Shown piece by piece: positions 6,444 to 49,866 of a DNA stretch of 64,000 nt. The notes below the pieces were generated by a model. That model saw only the letters and a program-made list of their open reading frames with translations, did not search any database and had not been told where the DNA came from. Every line of letters begins with the position of its first letter. Within the stretch, counting starts at the first letter, position 1. The translations under genes and the position numbers were made by a program. Origin of the DNA: an uncultured Nitrospiraceae bacterium (GTDB lineage Bacteria; Nitrospirota; Nitrospiria; Nitrospirales; Nitrospiraceae); the NCBI GenBank assembly GCA_963846575.1, contig CAWJWJ010000002.1, forward strand, positions 448,001 through 512,000, written 5' to 3'.

Positions 6444-7958
6444 ATGCCAGCAAAGCACGACCCAATAACGGCGGGCACTCAACTAGAAAAAGAAGCCAAG
6501 CTCCGAACCGTCATTGAGTCGGTCCCGAATGGCATTCTCATGGTTGATGAACAAGGCAAAATCACGCTGTGTAACACGGAAGCCGAACGAATGTTTGGCT
6601 ATGGTCGGAATGAACTATTGAACATGCCCATTGAAACGCTGGTGCCGAAAAAAATCCGTGAAAGGCATCCGAGCTATCGGGACAGTTTTCTGCACGATCC
6701 ATCCAAACGACAAATGGGGGCCGGCCGCGATCTGACCGGCATTCGCAAAGACGGGGCTGAGATTCCCGTGGAGATCGGGCTCAATCATATCAAAACCGAG
6801 CAAGGCCCCTTCGTAGTTGCCTCGGTCGTGGACATAACCGAGCGAAAAAAACAGGAAGAAAAATTTCGCACCATCGTCGAATCCGTGCCGAACGGCATCA
6901 TCATGGTCGATACGACAGGGTCTATCACGCTCAGTAATTCTGAGGCGGAAAAAATGTTCGGCTATGACCGAGGTGAATTGCTCGGCAAGAAAGTCGAATC
7001 CCTGGTCCCCATGCGATACCAGGGCAATCATCCTCGCGACCGGGACCGATTCATTGATTCCCCCCAGAAACGCCAGATGGGAGCGGGTCGTGACCTTTCG
7101 GGCCTCAAAAAGGACGGCACAGAAATTCCGGTTGAAATTGGACTGAATCCGATTGAAACCCCCGAAGGGCGCTATATTCTCGCGTCAATTCTGGATATTA
7201 GCGAGCGCAAAGGCATCGACGACAAGCTGCACAAGGCTTACGAAGAGGTACAGCAGAAAAACCAGGAGATGGAGCAGTTCGTCTACACCGTCTCCCACGA
7301 TCTCAAGGCTCCGCTCGTGACCAGCATGTCCTTTATGGGATTCCTCAAGGAAGACATCGCCGGTCAAAACTTTGAGGAAGTGGCCGACTCACTGGTCCGC
7401 CTGGAAAAGGCGCATAAGCGCATGCAGGAACTCATTGATGACCTGTTGCAGGTGAGCCGCATTGGCCGCATGGAACTCCATTACGAACCGGTGGTGCTCA
7501 AAGAGGTGCTCATGGAAGTGGGGGAGAATGCGGCGGAGCGATTACAGTCCACAAATGCGCGGTTTGAGTATGCAGCCGATTTTCCTGAGCTGATGGCGGA
7601 TCGGAAGCGCGTTGCCCAGGCCTTTGAAAACCTCATCGGCAATGCACTCAAGTATACCGCTGAGGGAGCACAGCCCGTGGTGCAAGTATTGTGGAGCGAT
7701 GCTGGACATGAACTCCATGTGTGCATCAAAGACAACGGCCCAGGGATCGAGCCACAATACCATGCCAAGATTTTTGGGCTATTCCAACGGTTGGATTCCA
7801 GCAAGGAAGGCACGGGCGTCGGGCTCACGATCGTCTCTCGTATCATGCAGCTCCATGGGGGTCGCGTGTGGGTGCAGTCTGCATTAGGCCAGGGCTCTGA
7901 ATTTTGGCTTGCGTTTCCAAAAGTGCCCACGCGAAAGGAGTCCATAAATGCCAACTGA
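6444..7958 (+). CDS. Cytoplasmic PAS-PAS sensor histidine kinase (Cph1-like HisKA/HATPase)
   Basis: Two similar PAS/PAC repeats; H-box VSHDLKAPL; N-box ENLIGNALKY; DNGPGI; GTGVGL. Confidence 0.93.
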   Translation: MPAKHDPITAGTQLEKEAKLRTVIESVPNGILMVDEQGKITLCNTEAERMFGYGRNELLNMPIETLVPKKIRERHPSYRDSFLHDPSKRQMGAGRDLTGIRKDGAEIPVEIGLNHIKTEQGPFVVASVVDITERKKQEEKFRTIVESVPNGIIMVDTTGSITLSNSEAEKMFGYDRGELLGKKVESLVPMRYQGNHPRDRDRFIDSPQKRQMGAGRDLSGLKKDGTEIPVEIGLNPIETPEGRYILASILDISERKGIDDKLHKAYEEVQQKNQEMEQFVYTVSHDLKAPLVTSMSFMGFLKEDIAGQNFEEVADSLVRLEKAHKRMQELIDDLLQVSRIGRMELHYEPVVLKEVLMEVGENAAERLQSTNARFEYAADFPELMADRKRVAQAFENLIGNALKYTAEGAQPVVQVLWSDAGHELHVCIKDNGPGIEPQYHAKIFGLFQRLDSSKEGTGVGLTIVSRIMQLHGGRVWVQSALGQGSEFWLAFPKVPTRKESINAN

Positions 7959-8412
7959 AGCCGTCGCTAGAAGTATGAAGTTTCTCCTGGTTGAGGACGA
8001 TGACGACCACGCCACGATCGTCATCCGATGTCTACGAAGAGAGAATGGTCTCAATACCGTTGACCGCGCCACCGATGGCGTCGAAGCAATCCAATATTTG
8101 AAGGGGGAGGCGCCCTTTCAGGACAAATCGCTGCCAGACGTGATCTTGCTGGACCTGAAGCTGCCCAAAAAAGACGGCCATGAAGTGTTGGCGGAAATCA
8201 AACGGGACGAACGCCTACGGGTGATTCCCGTCGTCGTACTAAGCACCTCCGACGCCGAAAGTGATCGCATGCAAGCGTATCATCTGCATGCCAACAGCTA
8301 CCTGGTGAAGCCACTCAGCGGGGAGTACTTCAAAAAGATGATTCAAGATATGAGTCTGTACTGGGGCAGTTGGAACCGATCCCCCAACATTGCATTGACG
8401 CCTAGTGCCTAA
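7948..8412 (+). CDS. Single-domain response regulator (Rcp1-like)
   Basis: LLVEDD, LLDLKLPKKDG, ANSYLVKP; overlaps the kinase stop. Confidence 0.92.
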   Translation: MPTEAVARSMKFLLVEDDDDHATIVIRCLRRENGLNTVDRATDGVEAIQYLKGEAPFQDKSLPDVILLDLKLPKKDGHEVLAEIKRDERLRVIPVVVLSTSDAESDRMQAYHLHANSYLVKPLSGEYFKKMIQDMSLYWGSWNRSPNIALTPSA

Positions 8413-10543
8413 CGCCACTCAGCTCAGCGTCCTCTTGATTGAGGACAACGACGAGCACGCGACCATTATTGCTCGACACTTGAGGCAAGTCGAAGATGCC
8501 CGCGTGGTCGTCTCGCGGGCCTCGTGTCTGGCCGATGGGCTGAGTCTGCTCGCGGCGAAGCGATTCGATGCCCTTCTCTTGGACCTCCAACTGCCCGATA
8601 GCCAGATAGACGAGACCTTGCGCTGCACGCTGAAGTATACCGTCGAGGTCCCGATCATCGTTATTTCCACCATTGAAGAACGCGCCCTCGCCAAGCAAGC
8701 GTTGAAGGAAGGGGCGCAAGCCTACCTCTGCAAAGCCGATCTCTCGTCGGAGCTGCTCTACCGAGCCATCGATTATGCCATTGAGCGGCAAGTGACCGAC
8801 GCCCGCCTGCGCGCAGAGGTTTCGCGGAAACAGGTTCTGTTCGATCTCAGTCAACAGGCCTTATATGAGAAGGACGTGGTCTGCCTCTTTGACAGGGCAG
8901 TGTCCACATTGTCGCATGCATTGCACGTTAAGTTCGTCATCTTGATGGAGTTTCTCCCAGACGAAAACCGGTTTCTCTTACGCGCGGGCACGGGGTGGAA
9001 AGACGGCCTTGTTGGACGGGAGAAAGTTGGGGCCGAATTGGACTCGCTGGCGGGCTTCACGCTTCGCGCCAGCCGTCCGACGATTCCAGGGAATCTGAGC
9101 ACCCTCGAACCGGTGATCATTAGTGATCTGACGACGGAAAGACGTTTTTCTCCCGCCCCGTTCCTGCCCGATCACGGCATCATCAGCGGCCTCAGTGTCG
9201 TTATCCATGGCAAGGACCAGGCGCATCCCTATGGCATCTTGGGGGTGCATTCGGCAACCCGTCGTGAGTTCACAGCCGATGAAGCCCAGCTTCTCCAATC
9301 GGCGGCGAACGTGTTGGCGGCGGCGCTCTTGCGAGTACAGCTCGAAGGGGACCTCATAGAATTGAACGCCGACTTAGAGCGCCGGGTGGCGAAACGCACC
9401 CATGACCTGGAGCAATCTCAGACGCTTCTGCGCGGATTAGCCACCAAGCTGAACCTGGCTGAACAGCGCGAACGCAAGCGGGTGGCGACGGAATTACACG
9501 ACCATCTGGCCCAAATGCTCGTACTCGGACGCCTAAAGCTGGGAGAGGCAAAGCAAAGCGTATTATTGGACTCCGAGTGCCAGGCCTTGCTGGGTGAAGC
9601 GGACAAGGCGCTGAGGGACTCGCTATCCTACGCTCGCACACTCGTTGCCAGTCTCAGCCCCTCTGTTCTGTATGAGTTCGGCTTACCGACAGCGATTAAG
9701 TGGCTGGCCGACCAGATGCAGCAGTACAACCTAACGGTCATTCTCGAATTACCGGATGGGCCTCCCATATCCCTGCCCGAAGACCAGGCCGTGCTGGTCT
9801 TTCAGTCGGTGCGTGAACTACTCATGAACAGCGCGAAACATTCCCAGTCTTCTCAGGCCAGAGTTATCCTGCAATATCGACAGGAGGCATTACGGGTCGA
9901 AGTGCGGGATCAGGGCGTGGGCTTCGATGTAGCGGCATTGACGCAAGCGGGGCTCTCACCTAAATTCGGTCTTTTCAGCATCCGTGAGCGCATGACGGCG
10001 TTGGGTGGGTCGTTTACGATTCAGTCTGAGGACGGACATGGAACGCTCGCCGTGTTGACCTTGCCCATGCCACGAGAAGTGCCTCACCCATCGCCTGAGC
10101 TTGAGCCCGCAGTCCAACGTAGGGCGCTCATCGCTCAGTTGGCGTCACAGGCCGTCCAAGCGGACACCGGAGTGCAAGTGTTGCTGGTGGATGACCATGC
10201 CATGATACGGCAAGGCTTACGCAGCGTACTTGAGAGGTATTCGGACATTTGTGTGGTCGGGGAAGCGTGCGATGGCGTGGAAGCGATTGCCCAAGCCGAC
10301 CGGCTGTGCCCGTCGGTCGTCGTGATGGACATCAACATGCCAAACATGAATGGCATTGACGCGACGAGCATGATCAAGACCCGTCACCCCGAAATGGTGG
10401 TCATCGGATTATCAGTCAACGCCTCGCCTGAGAATGACCACGCCATGCGGGGAGCAGGGGCGGTGCTGCTGCTCACCAAAGAGGCGGCTGTGGAACAACT
10501 CCACGCATGCATTCGAGAAGCCATGCATGGATCCAGACCCTAA
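8405..10543 (+). CDS. Hybrid kinase REC-GAF-HisKA_3-HATPase-REC
   Basis: N-terminal REC (LIEDN, LLDLQLP), GAF (GILGVHS..RREFT), ELHDHLAQ H-box, DQGVGF, C-terminal NarL-like REC (VDDH, MDINMP). Confidence 0.92.
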   Translation: MPNATQLSVLLIEDNDEHATIIARHLRQVEDARVVVSRASCLADGLSLLAAKRFDALLLDLQLPDSQIDETLRCTLKYTVEVPIIVISTIEERALAKQALKEGAQAYLCKADLSSELLYRAIDYAIERQVTDARLRAEVSRKQVLFDLSQQALYEKDVVCLFDRAVSTLSHALHVKFVILMEFLPDENRFLLRAGTGWKDGLVGREKVGAELDSLAGFTLRASRPTIPGNLSTLEPVIISDLTTERRFSPAPFLPDHGIISGLSVVIHGKDQAHPYGILGVHSATRREFTADEAQLLQSAANVLAAALLRVQLEGDLIELNADLERRVAKRTHDLEQSQTLLRGLATKLNLAEQRERKRVATELHDHLAQMLVLGRLKLGEAKQSVLLDSECQALLGEADKALRDSLSYARTLVASLSPSVLYEFGLPTAIKWLADQMQQYNLTVILELPDGPPISLPEDQAVLVFQSVRELLMNSAKHSQSSQARVILQYRQEALRVEVRDQGVGFDVAALTQAGLSPKFGLFSIRERMTALGGSFTIQSEDGHGTLAVLTLPMPREVPHPSPELEPAVQRRALIAQLASQAVQADTGVQVLLVDDHAMIRQGLRSVLERYSDICVVGEACDGVEAIAQADRLCPSVVVMDINMPNMNGIDATSMIKTRHPEMVVIGLSVNASPENDHAMRGAGAVLLLTKEAAVEQLHACIREAMHGSRP

Positions 10544-10652
10544 GGCAGGCTGCACCCGTTCCATTCAGCAGGGACGGGGGAATCGCAGATTAGCATAGAG
10601 AGAGTGGGCAACACTCTCTCTATTGCCACGGAGTCAAAGCGGGCGGAGGTGT

Positions 10653-10988
10653 ATGTCCTCGATTCTTCTCATCGAAGACGATGTCAGTCTGCGAGAATTG
10701 ATACATATCACCTTGAGGACGGCGGGATACGACGTCATCGATGCGGTGAACGGCCGACTCGGACTCAAGGCATTTCGGAAGTCGCCGACCGACCTGTATA
10801 TGCCAGAGCGAGACGGTTTGGAAGTGCGGCGCTCCCATCGCAGCGTTAAGGTCCTCGCGATCTCGGGGGCCTCAGGGACCATCGGATATTTTCCACTCGC
10901 GCAGTCCTTAGGCGCCGTGGCTGTCCTTCAAAAGCCATTTTCTCCTTCAGTGTTATTAAAGGTCGTCGCGGAGCTGCTGAGTCATTGA
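10653..10988 (+). CDS. Single-domain response regulator with internal in-frame deletions (possible pseudogene)
   Basis: LLIEDD, DLYMP, AISG, LQKPF present; beta3 and part of alpha3 appear missing. GGAGG SD. Confidence 0.65.
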   Translation: MSSILLIEDDVSLRELIHITLRTAGYDVIDAVNGRLGLKAFRKSPTDLYMPERDGLEVRRSHRSVKVLAISGASGTIGYFPLAQSLGAVAVLQKPFSPSVLLKVVAELLSH

Positions 10989-11083
10989 TGGCTCAGGGTC
11001 GGAGCCAGTCGATTCCAGAAAAGCGAGCCTCCAGAACACGCGCGCACATCGGCGAATTGTGTTGCCAACTGAGGCTAAATAAG

Positions 11084-11431
11084 ATGATGGAAAATCCGTT
11101 GTCCCCCCACGCCCCTCTCAACCACTGCCCGCCCCCACTTGTCCCGATCATGCTGGAAGTCGTTGCGGCTCACAATGCCGCCATGCCAAGTGTGGGCGAA
11201 GGCATCCACGAGAAGACGGTGGAGATGGCCGGCAGCGACTACGATCAGCTGCTGGTGCTGTACTACACTGCATTCGGGACGCCCTTCTCCTGTAAAGACG
11301 CACAGCACGGGGTCACTCATACTTTATCCTTCGCCGATAAACCAGCCGTGGTACAGGAAACTCTGACTAGCACGACTCGCCGCTATACCGTACAGGTGAA
11401 GTTGCTGAAGCTGCCGGCCGTGCCCTGGTAG
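11084..11431 (+). CDS. Hypothetical protein
   Basis: Open frame with protein-like composition; no recognised motif. Confidence 0.4.
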   Translation: MMENPLSPHAPLNHCPPPLVPIMLEVVAAHNAAMPSVGEGIHEKTVEMAGSDYDQLLVLYYTAFGTPFSCKDAQHGVTHTLSFADKPAVVQETLTSTTRRYTVQVKLLKLPAVPW

Positions 11432-11858
11432 CCCCTGAATGCCGAAAGGCACTCGAGTGGTCGATTCAATCCCGTATGGGACTGTTCTCCTTTTGGATCA
11501 GCGTACTGGCGATGGTGTGCTTGAACCATGCGATGCGCACGTGGACGAGACTCACGCATCCCTGTGCGCACGTCGCTGGGCTCGGTGATCGGCCTTCGCG
11601 GTTGCCTGGGGATGTTGACCCCTCGTCAGTCGGCATGGTGGGCTGAGAACCATCCCAGAACGAGGACGCTACCTGGCCATGCGTGCGATGATTCTGTGAG
11701 CTCTGTCGTGGTTCGCGCAGAAGTTTGGTCCATACACGCGAGAAAGACGTCATCTGCACCAGCACCAGGCCCTAGGACGCCTTGATCCTCCCAATCGTAG
11801 AGCCCATTCCATCTAACGCGGAATAGCCGTCCTAGCGGCTTTGTCCTAGAGTCGCGCC

Positions 11859-12230
11859 ATGCAAATATGCTGCTCGCCGAACGAGGATGAAGGCCTTCCC
11901 TTCTCTTGTACGATCTCCATCACCGATGAAGCCGAGCCCATGGATGGCACGATCTGGGCCTTCTACCCGCATCGCTGTCTCCTTGAAAGCGGTCGCGGCC
12001 TCACTCTCGGAATGGGCGTCTCCCAAACGTTGGACCTCTCTGAGATCGCGCGGGTCCGGCTCGGGCCTGGGATCGTCACATGGGTCTGCGACAAGGCATG
12101 CGGCATTGAGTTTCCACACAGTTCGGCATCTACCACCTTTGAGCGGCTACCATGCGCAGGTGAGGTCTCGGCCGTCGATCACGCCCATGTCTCCAGGGTC
12201 CACCTGTGCCCAACACTCCCCGCGGATTAA
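11859..12230 (+). CDS. Degenerate PilZ-like protein
   Basis: DGTI...CLLES...LGMGV..L.L...GIVTWV...CGIEF beta-barrel pattern; RxxxR and DxSxxG absent. Confidence 0.55.
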   Translation: MQICCSPNEDEGLPFSCTISITDEAEPMDGTIWAFYPHRCLLESGRGLTLGMGVSQTLDLSEIARVRLGPGIVTWVCDKACGIEFPHSSASTTFERLPCAGEVSAVDHAHVSRVHLCPTLPAD

Positions 12231-12254
12231 CTTTGAGGAGACCAGTCACCGTCT

Positions 12255-12614
12255 ATGGAGCAAGTCGACGCACATCTAAAGATCCTTCTGCAAGACTTCG
12301 TGCGACTGTGTCCCGAGGACACGCCCTTAGAAGGAGACGACTGGGCCGGCCTGCATGAAATTTGTGTGTTTATCCACGAGCAAGAGATTCAGTGCGCACC
12401 TTCGACCTTTCGGGATTTCTTGATCCAGCATGGCTGTTCGGAGAACAAGGCCACGGCCGTGAGTCAGTACTATAGTCACTACCTTCACCAGCTGAAGGTG
12501 CGTGGTCACGATCCCCAGACCTCTGTCCAGAAGCTGGACGAGACGCCAACGCAAACTGGCGCTGAGGCTCACGCTCACAACCAAGGAGCGACGGATGTGT
12601 CGGTTCCAATTTAA
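12255..12614 (+). CDS. Small helical Cys/His protein, paralog of 13682..13954
   Basis: GAGGAG SD; shares LLQD..R.CP, DW, EIC..H, R.FL..GCS..KA with the 13682 ORF. Confidence 0.75.
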   Translation: MEQVDAHLKILLQDFVRLCPEDTPLEGDDWAGLHEICVFIHEQEIQCAPSTFRDFLIQHGCSENKATAVSQYYSHYLHQLKVRGHDPQTSVQKLDETPTQTGAEAHAHNQGATDVSVPI

Positions 12615-12777
12615 TCGGAAGAATCATGAGTCAGTTGTCGTCAAGGGAAGACGGGTCGACATAGTGGACGGTTGCATCACAGTCGTGGATGCACAAGACC
12701 GGCCTCTTGCAACGTTTGACCCAGCCGAGCTGTCGAGTTGGTGGATGGTGCCCGAGACCCGAACGCCCTCCTCATGA
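12595..12777 (+). CDS. Small hypothetical protein (60 aa, beta-rich)
   Basis: AAGGAG SD 6 nt before the ATG; overlaps the upstream gene end. Confidence 0.55.
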   Translation: MCRFQFNRKNHESVVVKGRRVDIVDGCITVVDAQDRPLATFDPAELSSWWMVPETRTPSS

Positions 12778-13320
12778 TTATCTGCTATCTCACCAGGTCG
12801 CATCCTCTTTTCAGGTCGTCTGGACCACAAATTGAATAGCAGAAAAAAAGGACAGCCGCAGTGTCCATGTGGCTCAGCCGGTTTCAAGGCATCGATTAAA
12901 CCAAAGTATGCGGTGAACGACTTATCGCTCAATTTCTGGAGCCTTTGCCCTCCTTTCGGAATACAGCGAGTGGTATGGTCTTAGTGCTGGGCTCTTCACA
13001 TAGCGCGGCAGTCAGGCCAGAAGCACGCTTTGAAGTCCCGTCTATACACGGACTGAGTCACACAATTATTTCTTCGACGACCGCATTCTCTTGCTAGTCT
13101 CCGGTGGGAACTAATTGGCCGTCATTGCCATGATAGCAAGTCGTCGCCCGTGGGTCACTCCGCCTTCCAAATGCAGGCCATCCTTCAAATCTTTGCACAG
13201 TACACCTAGGTGCCCTCCCGCCTTTGCGGTACGTCCTCTGGGGCATGGCAAAGATGCGAGGTTGGGTTATTCTTCCTCATGGACAGGACGGCTACCCTAG
13301 GAGAACAAAGTGTTGCCTCC

Positions 13321-13632
13321 ATGATTGAGATCCCTTGCCGAGTTGACTATCGCCCGACCAACGCCCAGCAATTTTGCGAATGGACCGGCCGAGTCGCTCG
13401 GCTGTCTGCTACCGAATGCCGGATCGTCGCTGCCCATGTACCTCAGCCCGGCGCCTGGCGGGAGCTCCGGATCTATCTGCGCGGACATGCCTGGCCAATC
13501 AAGGTCCCCCAGGCAGAGGTGGGGTGGAGTCACTGGAGGGACTTTACGGTGGGATTTCTTCATTTCTCGAGGCAGGAGCAGGACCAGCTCGAAGGCTCTC
13601 TCAGAGCCGCCTCGGTCCTAGTCGCGAATTGA
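13321..13632 (+). CDS. Degenerate PilZ-like protein
   Basis: IPCRV...GRVARLS.TECRI...PG...ELRIYL...WPIKV..AEV.W...FTVGF...EQDQL matches stand-alone PilZ; c-di-GMP motifs absent. Start uncertain. Confidence 0.7.
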   Translation: MIEIPCRVDYRPTNAQQFCEWTGRVARLSATECRIVAAHVPQPGAWRELRIYLRGHAWPIKVPQAEVGWSHWRDFTVGFLHFSRQEQDQLEGSLRAASVLVAN

Positions 13633-13681
13633 CGAGCCATTCCTGCCCCCTGAAGAATCCTCACAAAGGAGTACGACTGGC

Positions 13682-13954
13682 ATGGACAAACACGTTCAGA
13701 GACTGCTGCAGGATCTTGCCCGAACCTGCCCCGCCAGCGATCTTCAACAGAAGGATTGGGAAGAGATGTATGAAATCTGCCTGTACGCGCATTTGAATGC
13801 CATAGTACTGACCCCTCGTAGCCTGAGAGTGTTTCTCCACGAGCAAGGGTGTTCGGTGCAAAAGGCAGCTTTTTTGAGTCACCAAGTTGAACATCTGACC
13901 CGCATCCTGAGCCTCTATGACGAGCGGCGAGCCGAACAAAGCGCCCGAGACTGA
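13682..13954 (+). CDS. Small helical Cys/His protein, paralog of 12255..12614
   Basis: AAGGAG SD; clear similarity to the 12255 ORF. Confidence 0.78.
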   Translation: MDKHVQRLLQDLARTCPASDLQQKDWEEMYEICLYAHLNAIVLTPRSLRVFLHEQGCSVQKAAFLSHQVEHLTRILSLYDERRAEQSARD

Positions 13955-14002
13955 CCACCGGTGCTTCCAGGGATTTCATCGCACATGGAACCGGGAGTGA
14001 GC

Positions 14003-14419
14003 ATGCAACGTCTTGAGAAGGCAACAGTTGACGCGAAACTCCAGATGCTGATCCGGCATTTGGTGCTCAGCTTTCTCCAAGCCACCATTTTTTCTCGTGA
14101 GGTGGAGGAGCAGTACGCTGTCGTGGTCATCGCCCCTTATGACGGGGGCCCTGACAAAGTCATTCAAGTCGAACGGGCGTGGCTGGCCAAGCAGCCGGAC
14201 ACGATGGAAGCATTTCGACGTGTGCTGGAAAATCTGAACTTGCCGACCGTCCTCCAACGGTACGGAAGATACGACCTGGGATCGGCCGATTGGAGCGACC
14301 CCGCCAACGCACGATGGCTGGCGGCCCAAGGCAGCGATGTGGTCTCTCTTGGCCGCCTGCACCTCTCGGGTCCGTCCCTTCCATCGTCTGCCCGTGCAGT
14401 CTTCCCTGCCCGTGCATAA
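14003..14419 (+). CDS. Hypothetical protein
   Basis: GGGAG SD before ATG; follows 13682 in an apparent operon. Confidence 0.55.
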   Translation: MQRLEKATVDAKLQMLIRHLVLSFLQATIFSREVEEQYAVVVIAPYDGGPDKVIQVERAWLAKQPDTMEAFRRVLENLNLPTVLQRYGRYDLGSADWSDPANARWLAAQGSDVVSLGRLHLSGPSLPSSARAVFPARA

Positions 14420-15187
14420 CGAACACCTCCAGGGCACCGGGAACGCTCTGAGATCCGTCCCCCCGACGAAATACTCGATCACCTGATTGGATTCGAGTGA
14501 ACCTATCCTATTTGGCAGGTTTTAGGATATACGATGGATTTTACTTTTGGCCTGGTGCCCTTTGAAGGCGAAGTGCGCGCGCGAATTCTTCACTAGGAAT
14601 GACTTAGATTCATACCCGTGTAGCGCATTCCATTAGGCCCGTTTAAGTGCCTCTCCACTTTGGTCGATGTGTCCCATAGGCTATTCCTTTGCTCGGAGCT
14701 CCCACTGCGGTCGGGGATCTTCACTCAATTTTCACCGGTGTGAATTCCGACCATCCTCACGCAGCCAGAGCGATTCCTTCAATTTTGAAGGAAAGCCCTG
14801 ATACCAACGATGGGCGGATTGCTTGCCCTCCACCAATTCCTTCCTCCCTGTCACGCAGCTGCTACATGATACCTGGCGGGTCATTAGGCTGGTTGTCTCC
14901 TAAACGGTTGCTCTATTCTCCGCTGAGTAGCTTCTCATTCATGTGAGCCTTTTGGGTCACATCCATCAGGTCTCGTCAACTCCGCGCACAAGGTCCCTTG
15001 ATCGCCTGCTCCTGTTGGAGTGATGCATCGACCACCTCCGCCTTGCGGCCTCGGTCTCATCAGGCACTTAGGTGCCGATACAATTGTGCCATATACAGTG
15101 AAGAGACTCAGGCCTAGGATGCAGCCTTCCGCTGTGTTCACCCTGAGGCAGTTCTCGTCTCGCCTCACCCTGAGAAAGGATAACGGC

Positions 15188-15465
15188 ATGACACCACTTC
15201 ACCAAGAAGTGCTGGGATACATCCGTGCCTGCGAGCATCTGCTATCCCCACGCGTGCGGCAGCTTTCCCGGACGAGCAGGAACTGGTGGTTCATTACGCG
15301 ACCGAAGTGCTGCAGTTATTCGCGCCCGGTGGCGACTCCCGTCCTTTCGCGCAACAGACCAAGAACCCCTGCCACGCCAGCGGTAATGACCGCAAGATCG
15401 ATCGCGGCGGTCCCCCGGGCGAACGGGTCGGTGGCGAGCGCCTTCCCGATCGATCGAATCTGTGA
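15188..15465 (+). pseudogene. Small helical protein with apparent 1-nt frameshift near 15268
   Basis: AAAGGA SD; MTPLHQEVLGYIRACEHLLS continues as an amphipathic LSPDEQELVVHYATEVLQLF if one C is added to TTTCCC. Confidence 0.4.
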
Positions 15466-15755
15466 TGCCTGATGCTCAATGCACCTAAGTCACATCCCCC
15501 AAGCGCTTCAGTAGGTGCTTGATAAGCAAAAGCTCTGTTCGTCAATACTTGCTTTCTTGTCTTCCAGCCATCCCGCCTGCCAAGGCCCTTCTCCTGGCCG
15601 AAAGGCCTCGATATCTTCCTCGAAGATCGATATATTGCCGCCGATAGTTGCCTCGGGTGCCTCCAGTCGAGCCAGCGCGCCGCACTCGAGGAGGTCTAAT
15701 CGCTCACTGCTTGGCCTCGGCTAGAGGATTCGGGTAGCGTGGCAGGAGAACGGAA

Positions 15756-17285
15756 ATGGGCAAGGAGGATACCGACAAGCACCAGCCGCTTGCCATAGTC
15801 TCGACTACTCGGACTGGAACCATCACGAGCTTCAATAGAGCCGCCGAACGCCTCTTGGGGTTTGATGCGGAGGAGATCATCGGATTACGTTCCCTCGTCT
15901 CGTTCCATGATCCAGCCGAGTTGAAGCGTCGAGGCGCAACCGATCTCTCCGAAATCAGGACAGCGGCAGGAGATGAGTTTGGCATCATCGTCGCAGAGGC
16001 CGTACCCGGTCATACGACCGATCACCAGTGGACCTATATCCCTTGCAAGGGCCGTCCCGTGCGGGTTCGCCTCTGGGTCACGGCCCTGTCCGACGAAACT
16101 GACGGCATAGCGGGGTACGTCATGGTCCTTCAACCCCACGATGAAAAATCGCGTTCCAGCGAGCTTCTCAGGCATCAAGCGGAACTTCTTGACCTCGCGA
16201 ATGACGCGATACTGGTACGAGATCTGGAACACGATACCATTGACTATTGGAATGACGGGGCCGTGCGTCTCTACGGATGGACCAGTAGCGAGGCTGAGGG
16301 TGCATATATTCATGATTTTCTGAAGACGGTCTTTCCTCAGCCATTGACGGAGATTAAAGAGAGTTTTCTCGCCGACGGATTTTGGACCGGGGAACTTCTG
16401 CATACGACACGGACCGGCGAGAGGATCGCCGTCTCCAGTCGCTGGACTCTGCTCAGGAATTCGGAGGACGTCCCCAGCGCGAGTCTGGAGTTGAATACGG
16501 ACATCACTAAGCAAAAACAGGCGCAAGAAGCGCTGACGGCCGCCCATCAAGAACTGGAACGGCGTGTCGAGGAGCGCACGATGGCGTTGAGCGACGCCAA
16601 TACCCGATTGCAGGTCCTCTCGCGACGATTGATGGAGATCCAAGAGTTGGAGCGTCGCGCCATTGCGAGAGACCTGCACGATGAGATCGGGCAGGCATTG
16701 ACGGCCATAAAAATGAACCTTCGCGAATTCGAAGTGCAGCGTGAGGCCGAGGGGCCGTCCGACAAACAGCTGGCCGAGAGTCTACTAATTCTGGATCAGG
16801 TGCTTCAGCATATACGCAACCTGGCGTTGGACCTGAGGCCCTCGATGCTTGACGAGTTGGGTCTCATTCCCGCTTTGAGGTGGTACGTCGCAAGACAGGC
16901 CGAACGTGCTGGATGGATCCTGAAGTTTCTGGCCGATGAGGCCATGACCAGACCGTCTCCGGAGGTGGAGATTACCTGTTTCCGGCTCACGCAGGAGGCC
17001 TTGACCAATGTGGCGCGCCATGCGAAAGCCACAGTAGTGGAAGTTCGTCTCGAACGCAGTGGTGCGGAGCTGGATCTCATCATTCGGGACGATGGGGTCG
17101 GATTTGTGCCGGATCTTATTCGCAGCGGGATTCGTGCGGGGACAAGTGTAGGCATCTCCGGCATGGAAGAACGCGTTCGTCTTGCAGGAGGACGAATCCT
17201 GATCCATTCCACCCCCGCGGCCGGAACTGAAATCCGCGCCACGTTTCCGCTAGACACGAGTCGCGCCGAGACAGCCTATGAATAA
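15756..17285 (+). CDS. PAS-PAS sensor histidine kinase, HisKA_3 (NarX/UhpB type)
   Basis: Two PAS domains, signalling helix, ARDLHDEIGQ H-box, QEALTNVARHA, DDGVGF. Confidence 0.93.
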   Translation: MGKEDTDKHQPLAIVSTTRTGTITSFNRAAERLLGFDAEEIIGLRSLVSFHDPAELKRRGATDLSEIRTAAGDEFGIIVAEAVPGHTTDHQWTYIPCKGRPVRVRLWVTALSDETDGIAGYVMVLQPHDEKSRSSELLRHQAELLDLANDAILVRDLEHDTIDYWNDGAVRLYGWTSSEAEGAYIHDFLKTVFPQPLTEIKESFLADGFWTGELLHTTRTGERIAVSSRWTLLRNSEDVPSASLELNTDITKQKQAQEALTAAHQELERRVEERTMALSDANTRLQVLSRRLMEIQELERRAIARDLHDEIGQALTAIKMNLREFEVQREAEGPSDKQLAESLLILDQVLQHIRNLALDLRPSMLDELGLIPALRWYVARQAERAGWILKFLADEAMTRPSPEVEITCFRLTQEALTNVARHAKATVVEVRLERSGAELDLIIRDDGVGFVPDLIRSGIRAGTSVGISGMEERVRLAGGRILIHSTPAAGTEIRATFPLDTSRAETAYE

Positions 17286-17928
17286 TGTACGCGTATTACT
17301 AGCCGAAGATCATACCTTGGTGCGCGCAGGTTTCAGGATGTTGCTGGAAAAGATTCCGGGTGTTCTCGTCATCGGAGAAGTCAGCGATGGCCGGATCGCA
17401 GTGAAGACGTCGAAAGAACTCGAACCTGATGTTGTGTTGATGGATATCGCCATGCCGGGGATGAACGGGCTCGAAGCGACTCGCCGCATCCGACAGGAGA
17501 GCCCGCGCATCAAGGTGTTAATGCTGTCCATGTACACGAATGAGGAGTATCTGAAGGAAGCGTTACGGGCAGGCGCGGCTGGTTATCTTCTCAAAGATGC
17601 CGATCGAAACGAACTTGAACTGGCCATTAACGTCGTGTGGCGGGGAGAGACCTATCTCACACCTAGCATGGCCAAGTTCGCCGTGGATGCCTATTGTCGA
17701 AAAGGGGAGGATCAGACCGGCCCACTGGCGCGTCTGACCGGTCGGCAGCGCGAAATCCTGCAATTGATCGCAGAGGGATGCTCTACGAAACAAATCGCGC
17801 AACGGCTGGAGCTGAGTGTCAAAACGGTAGAAACCCACCGGGCGCAGCTTATGGAGCGCCTTGAAATCCATGATGTTCCAGGTCTTGTCCGCCTAGCGAT
17901 CCGCACCGGTCTGGTCAAGCCAGATTAA
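17278..17928 (+). CDS. NarL/FixJ family response regulator (REC + LuxR HTH)
   Basis: AEDH, MDIAMP, LTGRQREILQLIAEG..TKQIA..LELSVKTVETHR. Confidence 0.95.
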   Translation: MNNVRVLLAEDHTLVRAGFRMLLEKIPGVLVIGEVSDGRIAVKTSKELEPDVVLMDIAMPGMNGLEATRRIRQESPRIKVLMLSMYTNEEYLKEALRAGAAGYLLKDADRNELELAINVVWRGETYLTPSMAKFAVDAYCRKGEDQTGPLARLTGRQREILQLIAEGCSTKQIAQRLELSVKTVETHRAQLMERLEIHDVPGLVRLAIRTGLVKPD

Positions 17929-18015
17929 GCTCCCGATCGCCTCAACTTTGTATTACCTAAGGTGTTTTTCGACTCTTTCCAAGGGTAACCCCGATTCCTT
18001 CGTTGTGGTGTGATA

Positions 18016-18030
18016 TGGCACCTTGCTTGC
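18016..18030 (+). promoter_or_regulatory. Putative sigma54 (-24/-12) promoter
   Basis: TGGCAC-CTTGC-TTGC is an exact match to TGGCAC-N5-TTGC, intergenic and pointing at the 18187 ORF. Confidence 0.65.
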
Positions 18031-18186
18031 CATATTTGCCGTCAAGCAGGGGGACGGGCGCCTTGCGAAACTCTCGAGAAAAACTCGGGGGAGAGGCGGG
18101 CAGAAAACTCGACAAGCAGTAGTCGCATCGAGCGATAGAAGCTCGTGAACGGTGCGGCGATTTCACAATAAGTGGAGCCATGTGTG

Positions 18187-18396
18187 ATGAAACACGCGAC
18201 TTCTCTCTTGAGCAGAGCCAACAATCGCCTGCGAGTTTTATCCCGCAGCCTCCTGGATGGCCGGGAGTTTGACCGATGCTCGATCGCACAGGACTTGCGT
18301 GACGAGAACGGGCACGTCATTCCCCTCATCACGCTGAATGTTTGTGAGATCGGAAAACCGCCGGGACATCCGAGTGTTGCGCTGTGTGAGGAATAG
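18187..18396 (+). CDS. Stand-alone pseudo-DHp microprotein (copy of neighbouring kinase S-helix/H-box, His to Arg)
   Basis: 23/47 ungapped identities by hand to the 15756 kinase segment LSDANTRL...MNLRE; GGAG SD. Confidence 0.6.
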   Translation: MKHATSLLSRANNRLRVLSRSLLDGREFDRCSIAQDLRDENGHVIPLITLNVCEIGKPPGHPSVALCEE

Positions 18397-18531
18397 CTGG
18401 CCGATGGCTTCCCGAATGTAGATCAACTGCTCCGACATCTCCGCCGGTTAGCGTCGGATACGAAGGCTCACAATCCGTGATGGAGTGGACCCAACCCCGT
18501 GGTGAAACGGGGTCCCTCGAAGGAGATGCCC

Positions 18532-18675
18532 ATGAAGCACATGACTCCTCATGCAAACTTCAGTGATCTGAAGCTGAAGGACAATCAGTTTAAAAAACTG
18601 GCTCTGGCGTCCGCGATTCTTCTAGTGACAGTCCTTGCCATCCTCATTCTGGAACTGCCCGGAATCAGGCGCTGA
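18532..18675 (+). CDS. Small single-pass membrane protein (47 aa)
   Basis: AAGGAG SD; MKHMTPHANFSDLKLKDNQFKKLALASAILLVTVLAILILELPGIRR; below the ORF-track cut-off. Confidence 0.55.
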   Translation: MKHMTPHANFSDLKLKDNQFKKLALASAILLVTVLAILILELPGIRR

Positions 18676-19269
18676 CTGCACGTGAACCTCCCTAGCCTAA
18701 AGATATCGCGCCTATCCGGGAATGATGCGACAGCCAACTGGTATTCATCGAATGCCTGCATAATTGTCGAGCGACGAAGGCATAATCTGCCAAATCGGCT
18801 GGCGATACTCACCGCCGTAGCTACCGGCTTCATGCTCGTGATTCTCCTCATCCTAGACCTCGGAGAGATGGCGACCGGAGTTGTCCATCAGTTACGGAGT
18901 GAGAGTCCCTTTCCAGATAGCAAGGAAGGTCAGGTGCGCTCAATGAGACCCAAGCCGAATCCCGGTCGGCGGGCGACTGAGAACTATGGGGATGGTGCGC
19001 ACGGCAATAACCTGGGGACCCAATGGTATTCCCGGCAGGACGGCGGGTTTGCCGCAGGTTCAAGACTCTAAGATCGTCGAGTCCGACAGCCCCATTAGTG
19101 ATGACCGTATGGTAAGGCCCCGAACATCTGTTGCCTCCATGCCTGACAGATGCAATGGTTAGCTCTCTAAGAATGGCGGCGCCAAGAAGAACATGGGCGA
19201 ATCGAGGCCTCAGATGTTTCCACAAGTTTCGTAACGTGCCGCCTCTGAAACGTTCATGAGGTAGGGGCC

Positions 19270-19457
19270 ATGGGACCTTCAGCCTATTGTCGGGATTGTT
19301 GAATGCTGGTGGCGATGGCAAAACATCGGAGGACCGGCAGCGGTTGGATGTTCTGCTGAATGCGTGGAGGTCCGGGGGCGAACTCGAACAGCGGGAGGGC
19401 CCGTGCGAGCGGTGCGGCCACTATATGGAGGTGAGCTACTACGAGGTGACTACTTAA
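19270..19457 (+). pseudogene. Small zinc-ribbon-like protein (CRDC...CERC) split by a 1-nt frameshift
   Basis: MGPSAYCRDC in one frame and LNAGG...EGPCERCGHYMEVSYYEVTT in another; one extra T at ~19300 joins them. Confidence 0.45.
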
Positions 19458-19741
19458 GCCGTCTTCATGCAGGTGGAGCGTATCAACGATTGGATCGCTG
19501 GCTCAGAAGGACTCCGCCAACAAAAAAGAGCAGAGTTCCTGCGGAGCGCGAGCCTCACTTGCCTCGGTCTACCTCACTCTGATTTTCGTGCTGATGCGTT
19601 GTCATCGGGGCTAGGGGATAGAACTGCGTGCACGACAGGGCCACGCATGTCTCGGCCCGCCATGGAAGTCTACGGACGTTGAAAATTGAGGGTCGGTGAA
19701 AGTCTAGCAAGGTCGAGGGATGCGGGGGAAGGCAGTCACGG

Positions 19742-20065
19742 TCATTTGTACACGACGGTGACCCGAGCGAGGAAATTCTGAAGGTGTTCCTGCTGATCCT
19801 GCAGCGCGATAAGGTTTTTCGCCATGGCGGCCTCTTCAAGGTGATGCCCGATCGTACTGATCTGGGCAAACCCATACCCTCCGCCATCGCCCTTCATGCG
19901 ATGGCCCAAAACCCGAATGGTATCCAGGTCTCCCTGCTGGAGGCAGGCAGCGATCGTGCTGAGGTCCCGCTGGCGATTGGCCAGGAATCCCGGCACGATG
20001 GCCTCCAGGTCGACGTCCACCTGTACGACAATTTTTTCTTCGGCAGTCGGGCGCGCGGGGATCAT
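19742..20065 (-). CDS. Hpt phosphotransfer protein
   Basis: [13 protein letters not shown]pt motif. Confidence 0.9.
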
Positions 20066-21831
20066 TGAGGTCGGGTCCTTTCGAAGGCAGTCAACAGCTC
20101 TAAGAGTGTGATTCTCTTCAGCGGTTTGGTCATGTGGGCGTTGCAGCCTGCCTCAATGATTCGTGCGGATTCTTCCTTCAGTGCCAACGCCGTGAGCGCC
20201 ACGATCTTGACCGCGGGTAGGTCTTGCTCTTGTTCCCATTTGCGGATGGTTCTGGTGGCGGTGAGGCCGTCCATGACCGGCATCTGCATATCCATCAGGA
20301 TCAGGTCGTAATGTCCGTTCTGGAATTTTGCGACTCCGATCTGGCCGTTGTCGGCCAGATCCATTCGATGGGGGGTGTCCTTGAGGTAGGATTTGATCAG
20401 GATCTGGTTATCCGGCGAATCTTCGACAAGGAGAATCCGCAATGGCTTGCACAGGGAGGCTGCGGGCAAATGAGAATGCTGAGCGGTTGCCAGAAGACCA
20501 TTTTGGCTGCGTCCAAGGGCAATGCTGATAGTTTGTTGGAGATCAGGACGCCGGATCGGCTTGACCAAATACCCACCCAGGCCGAGTTCGTAAGTTCTGG
20601 CAATGTCGTCAGCCCAACGGTCGGAAGCCAACATGATGATCGTGAGGCCGCTGAGGCGATGATCATCTCGGATCCGCTCGATGACTTCAAACCCGTCCAT
20701 GCCGGGCATTCGGCAATCCAATAATAGGAGGCTAAAGGGCATGTTGGAAGCAGCCGCCTGGTTCAGCAGTTCCATGGCCTGCTCGCCGCACTCGGCTTCG
20801 TCCACGAGGGCCCCCCACCCGAATAGTGTTTCGCGCAGAATTAAGCGGTTGGTCGGGTAGTCATCCACCACCAGGCAGCGCAATCCTTTCAAATTCAGCG
20901 CGACGGGTACCTTGGATGCCGACGGAGCCGTTTGTACGCCGAGCCGAACTGCGCAATGAAAGGTGCTGCCTTCGCCGAGTGTGCTTTCGGCCCAGATTCG
21001 ACCACCCATGAGCTTGGCTAATTGCTGCGATATCGATAATCCCAGGCCTGTGCCGCCGTACTGACGGGCGATGGTGCTATGAGCCTGAGTAAATGTCTCG
21101 AAAATGGTTTTTAATTTATCCGGAGGGACTCCGATGCCGGTGTCCTTGATAGAGAATCGAATCCCGCCGGCTTCCCGGCAGTCTGGATCGTTGGTTATGG
21201 TCATGACCACTGAGCCCTGCTCGGTAAACTTGATCGCATTCCCAAGGAGGTTCAGGAGGATCTGGTACAGCCGATTAGGGTCGCCGATCAGATGGCAGGG
21301 GACGTCATGTGCCAGATGCGAAACCAGTTCGAGCCCCTTCTCATTGGCCCGAAGCGCCAGCATTTCGCTGGCCTTGTCGATCAACTCAGAGAGATCAAAG
21401 TCAATCCTGTCTAAATCCAGACGCCCTGATTCCACCTTGGAGAGGTCCAGAATGTCGTTAATGAGGCTCAGCAGACTCGCGCCAGCACGGCGAAAGATAC
21501 GCAGATATTTTCTTTGCTCAGACGTGAGGGCGGTTTCCCATAACAGATCTGCCATGCCGATGATGGCGTTCATGGGAGTCCGAATCTCATGGCTCATGCT
21601 GGCCAGGAATTCACTCTTGGCACGATTGGCGACCTCAGCGGCGTCCTTGGCGGTCTGAAGCTCTGCGACGCGGCGCTCCAGTTCGCCGGAGACGCGCTGT
21701 AGGGCCCGTTCCGCCCGCCGGCGTGCAGCCTGTTCGCGTTGTAAGGCCGTGAGCGGACGAGAAGGAGTACGGGACACGGGTTTTGCCGGGGGGGCGGAGG
21801 TTCGGTGGGGATGAGCTGCGCGTTTCGCCAT
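20062..21831 (-). CDS. Hybrid histidine kinase HisKA-HATPase-REC-REC with no input domain
   Basis: [31 protein letters not shown], two REC domains. Confidence 0.95.
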
Positions 21832-21898
21832 GTCCTGGTCGGATCGTGTTCAGCCCCGGATGGGGATGCGGAATGGACCGCACATCGGCGTGAGGCCG

Positions 21899-22903
21899 TT
21901 AGTCCTTATGAATGTGATGCACCAATGTCAGCACGCCGGCCTGTTTGGCGCGATTGCGCCCTTCCTGTTTCGCTTGGTATAGCGCTTGATCGGCGGCCCG
22001 TATCAGATCGGTCGGGGCCGCAACGCGGTTCGGTACCGTACTCGCGAAGCCAAGACTGATAGTAATGGGATCTCCATTGGGATGTTTGATTTCAGCCTCA
22101 CAGACCTTTCGCCTCAGCGTATCCGCAACCTGTGCCGCGCCTTCCACCGTGGTTCCCGGTAAGACGATGACGAACTCGTCGCCCCCGTAGCGGGCTACCA
22201 AGTCACCGGGACGGTTGACATGGCTGGAAATAAGTTGGGCGACCTGGCGCAGACACTCATCGCCGGCCTGGTGTCCGTGGCTGTCGTTGTAGGTCTTGAA
22301 AAAATCGATATCCAGCATGATCAGAGACAGTGGCGTCGATTCGCGGGCGGCCCGCCGCCATTCCTGATCAAGGAAGTCGTCGAATTGCCGCCGATTCGTA
22401 ATCCCCGTCAAGCCGTCAAGACAGGAGAGGCGTAACAACATCTGATTGGCTTCCTGGAGCTGGCGCATGACCTCGAGGAGTTCCTGCTCGCGTGCGCGCC
22501 GCCGTTCGATTTCATGGACGAGGCGGAGCACGCAGCGGACGCGCGTCAAGAGCTCAATCTTGCTGAGGGGCTTCGCCACATAATCGATCGCGCCGGCGGC
22601 AAAGGCGAGTTGCAGATCCACGGGATCCGTTTTGACCGTAGCCATAATGATGGGGATGTCCCGATAGCGTTCGACGGCTTTGATTTGCCGGCAGGCCTCG
22701 ATGCCGTTCGTAGACGGCATGACGATGTCCATTAATACCAGATCGACCCGGCCAGTCAGTTGCTTTCCGCCGTCGAGACCCAGGAGGCGAAACGCGGCTG
22801 CGGCGGATTCGGCAACGAAGGTTTCTTCATAACCGGCGTTCGTGAGAATAGATTGCATCAGGAGGCGATCGTCCGCCGAGTCATCGACGATCAAGATACC
22901 CAT
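21899..22903 (-). CDS. Response-regulator diguanylate cyclase (REC-GGDEF)
   Basis: REC; DGLTG..NRR; RPGD I-site; YGGDEF active site. Confidence 0.95.
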
Positions 22904-22947
22904 GGCAGCAGTCTCCGTAGGGGTGTGTCGTAGGAGGATGCTAGCAG

Positions 22948-23595
22948 CTAGTCTGCGTAAACACCAGGGTAAAGCTTTTTGATGCAGGGGGTGCAGAGTC
23001 CGTGACTGAATTCGGCTTCGGAATGTTGTTGGAGGTATTCCTCTAACTGTTGCCAGAATCCTTGATCGTTGCGGATCTTCTTGCAGGAGGCACAGATCGG
23101 CACGAGACCTTTGAGGACCTTCACTTCGCGCAGGGCTTGTTGCAGTTCTTCATTGCTGCGCCGCAGTTCCCGTTCGCGCGCTTTGCGGCAATCCATTTCT
23201 TTTTTTAACATGAGCGCAGAGTTGACACGGGCGAGAAGTTCTACGCTATTGACCGGCTTGTTGATGAAGTCCATGGCGCCGGCTGAGAAGGCGGCTTGCA
23301 GATTATCGAGATCCGTTTTTGCCGTGACGACGATCACGGGGATATCCCGAAGACGGTCCAGGCTCTTGAGATGGCGAGTGGCGGCCACCCCGTCTGTGCC
23401 GGGCATGAGGAAGTCCATGAGAATGAGATCAATCGAAGGTGGAATATCTGATGTCGAAGCAGACGTCGCGCCGAGTAGGTCATACGCGGAGGAGGCCGAT
23501 TCTGCGACGAGCAACTCGGAATAACCGGCTTTGTTCAAAATCGTACGGAGCAGCAATTGCTGGTCCGGCGAATCGTCAACGATCAAAATGCTCAT
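22948..23595 (-). CDS. Response regulator with C-terminal Cys/His putative Zn-binding domain
   Basis: REC (VDD, MDFLMP, KP), coiled coil, [10 protein letters not shown]...SHGLCTPC. Confidence 0.9.
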
Positions 23596-49176: not shown

Positions 49177-49866
49177 TTAGTAGTTCGTGGACGTCGTTGG
49201 ACTTTGATTGCTCGAAGCAGGGGGAGCGGCTTGTGGTTTGGGATGGCTCACCTCGCTTGTCATGAGGCCGGATCCCGGAGGGCAGATACTCTCGGGCGCA
49301 TTGGCACCAGGGTTGCGCATGCCCCAGGCCGTCGCAAGGGCATGACAGGTGAGGAGGCTGATGCCTTCTTCGATATTCCCGAAACGCTCCGCGGACTGAG
49401 CTTTGCCGCTCCATTCAATTTCACCGGTGTTCACATCCACGGCCCTGAGAGCCACTGTCGCCGAATACACACGCTGATTGTGCGGAAAACCGGTGCTCCA
49501 ATCCAAAGCCTCCCAGGATCCCACCTCGGCATTGCTGAAGACCACGAGTCGAGCGCCTACTAATTTGGCCATTCGCAGTACGTCTGTTTCAAGGTACTGG
49601 TATCCCGTGAGATTGACCTTTTGATCGGCTGCGGCTTGGAGCACTTTCGTCTGGTCCACCACGAGAATGCCCTTCTTCAACAACCAGGTGCTGGCGCTCT
49701 GGATCGTATCGGGGCGTCCACCCCACACGACTGCTCTGGTATAGGGGGCAGGGAGCTTCGAGTGGAAACCATCCGTCATGGGCGTGTCCACGAATGCGTA
49801 TCCTCTACAGCCGGCGGCTGCCAGCAACAGTAGGCATAAAACCAGACGCAGTGTCATTGTGTTCAT
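49177..49866 (-). CDS. Lipoprotein, possible CsgG/LpoB-like fold
   Basis: Lipobox AAGC; AKLVGARLVV..LRAVDVNTGEIEWS. Confidence 0.72.
   Translation of the reverse strand: MNTMTLRLVLCLLLLAAAGCRGYAFVDTPMTDGFHSKLPAPYTRAVVWGGRPDTIQSASTWLLKKGILVVDQTKVLQAAADQKVNLTGYQYLETDVLRMAKLVGARLVVFSNAEVGSWEALDWSTGFPHNQRVYSATVALRAVDVNTGEIEWSGKAQSAERFGNIEEGISLLTCHALATAWGMRNPGANAPESICPPGSGLMTSEVSHPKPQAAPPASSNQSPTTSTNY

Follow-up and report, generated by a model that had tools for sequence, protein, structure and literature searches.

Large multikinase networks provide known cases of kinase inhibition via DHp heterodimers. RetS is a hybrid kinase of the HisKA type, large and membrane-bound. Sda and KipI are small proteins that are not DHp homologues, and plant microProteins and the pseudo-HPt protein AHP6 are small paralogues, with the interaction domain only or without the phospho-His, that damp the parent pathway. 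The plant examples are eukaryotic and their targets are transcription factors or Hpt relays; a literature search for a bacterial-kinase counterpart of the plant microProteins returned only an unrelated paper. The RetS-GacS pair of P. aeruginosa is a precedent for inhibition through a DHp-DHp heterodimer, in which the DHp of a paralogue takes over the homodimer interface, with autophosphorylation blocked as a result (PMC8498467). This is also the mechanism proposed below, except that in Nitrospira the target kinase would be paired with a DHp-only copy of itself. Sda and KipI are described as inhibiting autokinase activity at the DHp (PMC12189002).

DivL and the laboratory-evolved ChrS_CA-fs are reported to act by protein contact, their phospho-His and ATPase domain being dispensable, and ChrS_CA-fs was likewise born by a frameshift that removed catalytic function (PMC9491836). 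Both retain sensor or membrane regions, unlike the proteins described here, and both raise signalling; ChrS_CA-fs is a laboratory mutant in place of the kinase, not a second natural gene (PMC9491836). The HisKA-only "phosphotransfer proteins" of P2CS also consist of a DHp without a REC or HATPase domain, but they form a computational class with an assumed phosphate relay (PMC3018481, PMC4618731); the His of the Nitrospira proteins, by contrast, has been lost repeatedly. DesK, the DHp of which belongs to the same domain family and serves as the structural model of HisKA_3, has an N-terminal coiled-coil that folds in the kinase-off state and governs it (PMC5231405); it is, however, a full kinase, and the sequence match of the Nitrospira protein to solved chains is weak (E 0.27). 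In genome surveys, DHp-only genes have been classed as phosphotransfer proteins or fragments without testing. Our literature search, which covered mainly the main texts of papers available without subscription, found no naturally occurring DHp-only protein that inhibits the kinase from which it derives. The family described here is a DHp-only paralogue that occurs naturally, is under selection and has an origin that can be traced.

The locus and its neighbourhood

The window, a stretch of 64,000 nucleotides from an uncultured Nitrospiraceae bacterium, contains on its forward strand a cytoplasmic histidine kinase of 509 aa (15756-17285) with the Pfam architecture PAS-PAS-HisKA_3-HATPase_c and, by alignment, the phospho-His codon at 16677-16679. 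It is followed on the same strand, as are all features named below, by a NarL/LuxR-type response regulator of 216 aa (17278-17928; REC and GerE HTH by Pfam). The 69-aa ORF at 18187-18396, 258 nt beyond the regulator end at 17928, encodes a coiled-coil, DHp helix 1 and a loop according to BLASTP, alignment and a structural model. The initial annotation had matched it to the kinase DHp, and its ungapped alignment was reproduced with 23 of 47 identities; pairwise BLASTP gave 24/51 (E 5e-12), and nucleotide identities at codon positions 1, 2 and 3 were 30, 36 and 16 of 47. Two further observations from the same source were borne out: kinase CAC 16677 pairs with CGT 18298, replacing the phospho-His by Arg, and a Shine-Dalgarno-like GGAG (18174-18177; tblastn and inspection by eye) lies 9 nt ahead of the ATG, in former kinase Leu-Glu codons.

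Downstream lie the gene of a 47-aa peptide with a hydrophobic C-terminus (18532-18675), recognised by synteny and without a Pfam match, and the 5' remnant of an SGNH/GDSL-hydrolase gene (18682-19071), recognised by comparison with relatives. The peptide gene is kept 3' of a palindromic box in several genomes, and its product is a candidate small membrane regulator or target; peptides resembling it sit after the regulator in G073 and G069. The hydrolase gene is full length in G062 (358 aa) and G014 (C159) and broken in several other genomes. Near its remnant in relatives, glycosyltransferase-like and oxidoreductase-like ORFs were seen by eye, hinting at a surface-polysaccharide context. The locus belongs to a region dense in two-component genes (7948-23595). 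Besides single-domain receivers, this region contains another HisKA_3 hybrid kinase (8405-10543) and an Hpt protein (19742-20065); inspection by eye adds a hybrid kinase and a diguanylate cyclase. No Pfam match was obtained for several short ORFs at 10985-15472.

The window copy is prematurely stopped

The ORF had been described as free of stops and frameshifts. Its frame, however, runs on for 27 codons (18397-18480; frame reading and tblastn) beyond its TAG at 18394-18396, through DHp helix 2, to a TGA at 18478-18480, the usual stop position of the family. Kinase residues 275-359 align straight across TAG 18394 in tblastn, and a profile search flags "1 TAG" within the window match. Because the column is Gln in all 13 other small-protein rows of the alignment, TAG 18394 is a premature amber codon. 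Amber recoding was considered and rejected: TAG serves as a normal stop here, closing 323 of the 1262 long ORFs of the genome, and a search for an amber-reading tRNA revealed none. Judged from these comparisons, the window ORF is a prematurely stopped allele of a stand-alone gene of ~96-113 aa. In public reads, short pieces identical to the window came from three of the four soil runs; within the ORF they reach position 18285, short of the His and stop codons. The runs listed as holding the sequence included none of RNA.

An amber codon at a Gln column, set against intact orthologues, is a disabling mutation of the kind that marks a pseudogene. Of 25 near-invariant columns, the window row also deviates at 11, against 0-6 for the other 13 rows, and it has a long branch in both trees. 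Neutral evolution, on the other hand, does not describe this branch: its ω of 0.28 is below 1 (p=0.002) and not different from the background (p=0.38). Ahead of the stop ω is 0.22 (p=0.003 against 1); after it the value, 0.51, is uninformative. Given the ω of 0.28 for the branch, we infer that constraint acted on the lineage through most of its past and that the stop is recent or a sequencing error.

The initial annotation had proposed that the 69-aa His-less peptide is itself a decoy; it would then work with a single helix. The low ω ahead of the stop is in agreement with this, as are the position of the stop, which spares the N-terminal coiled-coil and helix 1, the best-conserved part of the family (ω 0.28), and a sigma54-like site that is nearer consensus in the window than in relatives. 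However, no relative among the genus and metagenome copies compared stops at this codon, a word-based search of low sensitivity with the 69-aa protein returned only itself, and the upstream box is degenerate in the window. Furthermore, the stop takes away most of helix 2, leaving the window allele without the two-helix arrangement of a HisKA_3 DHp. An intact member forms helices at 6-23, 26-56 and 64-95 in its AlphaFold model (pLDDT 85, pTM 0.73), whereas the 69-mer retains only the first two (2-24 and 28-55), followed by a low-confidence tail (pTM 0.36). Neither the 69-aa nor the read-through 97-aa form gave a Pfam hit, HisKA_3 (PF07730) included. We give the 69-mer decoy little credence: as a truncation of a ~96-aa gene it is unlikely to be the functional unit, and its product, lacking most of helix 2, is probably crippled.

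A small-protein family in Nitrospira

The profile search found stand-alone DHp copies in 10 of 39 genomes of the genus. Eight are intact (G003, G017, G020, G022, G024, G026, G030 and G031); the other two are the window genome (G000), with its one TAG, and G014, in which the gene is broken after the H-box. Among 262 genomes of other genera of the family no stand-alone copy was detected: 15 matched at E<=1e-17, all with open frames of >=286 aa, in a search that scored 16 candidates per genome and in which a broken copy like that of G014 would miss this cut. Named records place the small proteins in Nitrospira, including Ca. N. defluvii (L081), where the gene product, 113 aa long, is entered as CBK40697.1 with an unknown function. 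Our literature search, which covered mainly main texts available without subscription, found no expression study of N. defluvii.

Of 15 metagenome loci, 13 run from the N-terminal part to the usual stop region; of the other two, one is truncated at the start and one continues into unrelated sequence. In the latter (L100:788-1555) the continuation carries a terminase-like motif by eye, and the contig is probably a chimera of low coverage. Another contig, titled as an uncultured Legionella bin (L084), has a locus nearly identical to the Nitrospira locus L083 and is probably mis-binned. Protein searches added two clusters, with 160 and 164 members, as well as more divergent forms; two 75-aa proteins (P0016 and P0017) look frameshifted. 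Each of the eight sequences in the seed alignment has a HisKA_3 match at E<=1, the best being 1.1e-6. The first member scores 25.4 bits against the HisKA_3 cut-off of 24 and P0010 31.7 bits, while L081 and P0055 fall below the cut-off.

In four genomes (G014, G017, G022 and G026) the mini-gene is situated apart from the main kinase pair, which indicates that adjacency is not required. It was not found in G012 or G062, which carry the same kinase type. Broken in two of ten genomes and missing from these two, the mini-gene is, as far as its distribution tells, dispensable.

Origin by partial duplication of the kinase

In the tree, the 14 small-protein rows fall on one side of a branch and the 36 kinase DHp rows on the other (support 97/96). 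Kinase homology around the mini-gene spans about residues 247-398, and outside the core the duplicated tract is interrupted by stops and frameshifts (G017, G022, G026). The frames end after helix 2, with no HATPase_c in the same chain to make a histidine kinase, and tblastn around the gene revealed no CA-domain remnant past about kinase residue 398. By eye, the start codon and Shine-Dalgarno sequence arose within former kinase Leu-Glu-Arg-Arg-Val-Glu codons, and the usual family stop corresponds to kinase Met/Leu-Leu-Asp codons read after a +1 shift; G017 retains the old frame and reads through into the linker. On this sequence evidence, the family has a single origin in a duplicated kinase tract of ~codons 247-398.

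G012 and G062 show the box and the 47-aa peptide gene with no mini-gene between them, and the peptide gene is thus the older of the two genes. By this comparison, the duplicate landed between a pre-existing palindromic box and the gene of the putative small membrane peptide. The box sits after the regulator in G004 and G108 as well; at L033:6640-6720 and L035:2270-2320 (G004 and G014) it comes after the main regulator, and the next gene is oxidoreductase-like instead. In G014 and G022 a decayed regulator fragment precedes the cassette; it matches best the G003/G024/G030 type and not the host's. This suggests that the cassette was transferred horizontally or that a second locus was lost. Such fragments lie 5' of the box at L036:1-460 and L082:586-848, nearer to the type of the window clade than to the host's copy.

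Selection on the small protein

Codon models were fitted with our own GY94-type code on a fixed topology to 9 of the 16 collected genes, after near-duplicates, partial genes and the broken G014 copy had been dropped. The ω of 0.39 differs from 1 with a likelihood-ratio statistic of 56 (p=7e-14), and short branches alone give 0.38 (p=0.001). By part, ω is 0.28 in the N-terminal helices, ~1 in the loop and 0.51 in helix 2. The initial annotation had proposed comparing related genomes for synteny and dN/dS; the presence of the gene in 10 of the 39 genus genomes, eight times intact, and an ω below 1 are the outcome of that comparison.

The alternative that the gene makes no useful protein and is a partial duplication slowly decaying across the clade has to be weighed against these values. 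The constraint is weaker than in the kinase DHp, for which a similar set from nine genomes gives 0.10, so that ω is four times higher in the mini-gene. Very close strain pairs give noisy dN/dS, some near or above 1 from few changes, and there are broken copies in G000 and G014, frameshifted P0016 and P0017, and other remnants in the surrounding region. Decay of this kind, however, does not account for an ω significantly below 1 on short branches too, or for a loop near 1 beside a helix 1 at 0.28. The tree amounts to ~3.3 neutral substitutions per site, over which the frames have stayed open, whereas decay has overtaken both the duplicated flanks and the SGNH gene nearby. None of 2000 neutral simulations on the fitted tree, which modelled substitutions only, left >=8 of the 9 tips open (mean 0.28). 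Hence slow decay across the clade is distinctly unlikely, and by these measures the family is under purifying selection as a protein. The proposal of a selected DHp copy without a CA domain, downstream of its parent pair, is thereby upheld at the level of the family (synteny, one origin, ω and intact frames), but not for the 69-aa form.

Conserved residues and catalytic chemistry

The initial annotation had named the ORF for the lack of its phospho-His. This loss does not define the family, in which the His is kept in 16 of 20 rows and replaced by Arg in the window, P0010 and P0057 and by Tyr in G017. The losses amount to at least three separate changes. A single His>Arg event shared by the window (G000) and P0010 was considered: the two join weakly in one tree (92/47), and the other tree does not resolve them. 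The main kinase of G017, the carrier of the His>Tyr member, aligns in two frames with a break near residue 414 (L039:2453-3945).

A positive modulator, or a His phosphotransfer intermediate that aids phosphorylation of its own or another regulator, would fit the retention of His in most rows. Proteins made up of an isolated phosphotransfer domain form an established class (PMC3018481, PMC4618731), and ChrS_CA-fs is reported to raise signalling (PMC9491836). However, the His, present in 36/36 kinases, is not in the small rows the invariant residue that would be expected of a DHp-only phosphotransfer protein; P0010 and P0057 have lost it while keeping helix 2. The acid at H+1 is absent in most His-bearing rows of the kinase-adjacent group, and the parent kinase has an intact H-box of its own. 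There is, in our view, only a slight chance that the protein works in this way.

A different pattern is seen in the rest of the molecule. L-30, R-24, R-22, L-20, L-16, R-8 and L-1, mostly coiled-coil and core residues, are invariant in 14/14 small rows, the same rows keeping His in 11 and Asp+1 in 7. Pro occupies H+8 in 20/20 small rows, and Thr in 36/36 kinases. DxxxQ, the motif of HisKA_3 phosphatases, is intact in 4 of 20 rows and reads D...H in the window. The conservation of the coiled-coil and core beside a drifting His and DxxxQ indicates selection on the dimerising surface more than on chemistry.

Alternatively, the intact protein may homodimerise and act on the regulator, at least in the G017/G022/G026 group, by sequestering it, by taking back phosphate on its His or as a dedicated phosphatase. 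The segment from H to H+17 is the regulator-docking region. G022 retains 13 of its 18 kinase residues, whereas the kinase-adjacent group has only 6-9/18 identical plus the new Pro. His, Asp and Gln are all intact in G022, P0013 and P0015, and the His is, as noted, common in the family; DesK H188V, according to the source, retains phosphatase activity (PMC5231405). Against this, DxxxQ is reported to be needed for phosphatase activity in HisKA_3 kinases (PMC3510030), and none of the rows known to adjoin a kinase has it intact. Action on the regulator is an unlikely alternative.

The upstream box and promoter

A bipartite box, composed of a half-site, ~18 nt and a palindrome, lies at 17955-17998 in the window. 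It is degenerate there, with a matrix score of 26.6 against 52.5-68.6 at 10 other mini-gene loci, but is still the top matrix hit in its own genome. The box precedes the mini-gene in all nine other carrier genomes and occurs once per genome in 12 of the 39 genus genomes; the window genome (G000), with several positions different, is unmatched. Its symmetry and position after the regulator suggest that it is a candidate binding site of the adjacent NarL-type regulator. An RNA hairpin or terminator was rejected as a reading of the box, on account of variants that, by eye, disrupt the stem without compensation and of a scan that found no terminator there. A wide regulon motif is not supported, given the single match per genome and a next-best score of 17.0 in the window genome.

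The exact sigma54-like -24/-12 site TGGCAC-N5-TTGC seen earlier at 18016-18030 is present, 17 nt 3' of the box. The window contains two such matches, the second at 49302-49316, where 0.21 are expected, and 1 of 100 shuffles reaches two. By eye, 9 of 11 mini-gene loci show GG-N10-GC at this fixed distance of 17 nt from the box, which makes a sigma54 promoter for the mini-gene plausible. The full TTGC is confined to the window copy; the other loci have TGACA, TGTCA or TGCCA, which fits a sigma70 -35 element as well. Such a site would not by itself give feedback, because a NarL-type regulator lacks an AAA+ domain and cannot alone open a sigma54 promoter. The conserved palindromic box, which the initial annotation had missed, would be the better candidate for the feedback link.

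Proposed mechanism and its implications

Like a decoy, the mini-gene shares the dimerisation domain of a larger paralogue without its catalytic domain. Our leading reading, quite possible although we stop short of calling it probable, is that the intact protein joins one subunit of the parent kinase and lowers its output, the window allele, without most of helix 2, being probably inactive. The protein would form a four-helix bundle with one kinase subunit. Such a mixed dimer would have one ATPase domain and a docking helix distorted by the Pro at H+8, and would damp signalling; should the regulator bind to the box, this damping would become negative feedback. The fuller version, in which a microProtein-type gene born by partial kinase duplication behind the regulator's binding site acts as a subunit-poisoning feedback inhibitor with a dispensable phospho-His, is more tentative still.

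Several points speak against this reading. The gene is dispensable by its distribution and need not adjoin the main kinase pair, and decay is not shown by the ω of the window branch. The 16 retained His residues are not needed by a pure decoy, and a kinase without its CA domain can also raise signalling, as described for ChrS_CA-fs (PMC9491836). Foldseek with the monomer model returned generic helical bundles only, none at E<=0.001. A complex prediction that combined kinase residues 255-511 of L081, entered as a single copy without an alignment, with the small-protein alignment scored 0.02, a value that counts neither for nor against binding.

The reach of these findings is limited to one clade of one genus, in which the window's own copy is probably broken. 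Within it, birth of the gene (a new start, a frameshift stop and decaying flanks), apparent transfer to a second locus and repeated loss can be read side by side. If the parent kinase is inhibited, the family would show how a partial duplication can become a feedback regulator in few evolutionary steps. If this is true, it also suggests that other "HisKA-only" genes may be decoys.
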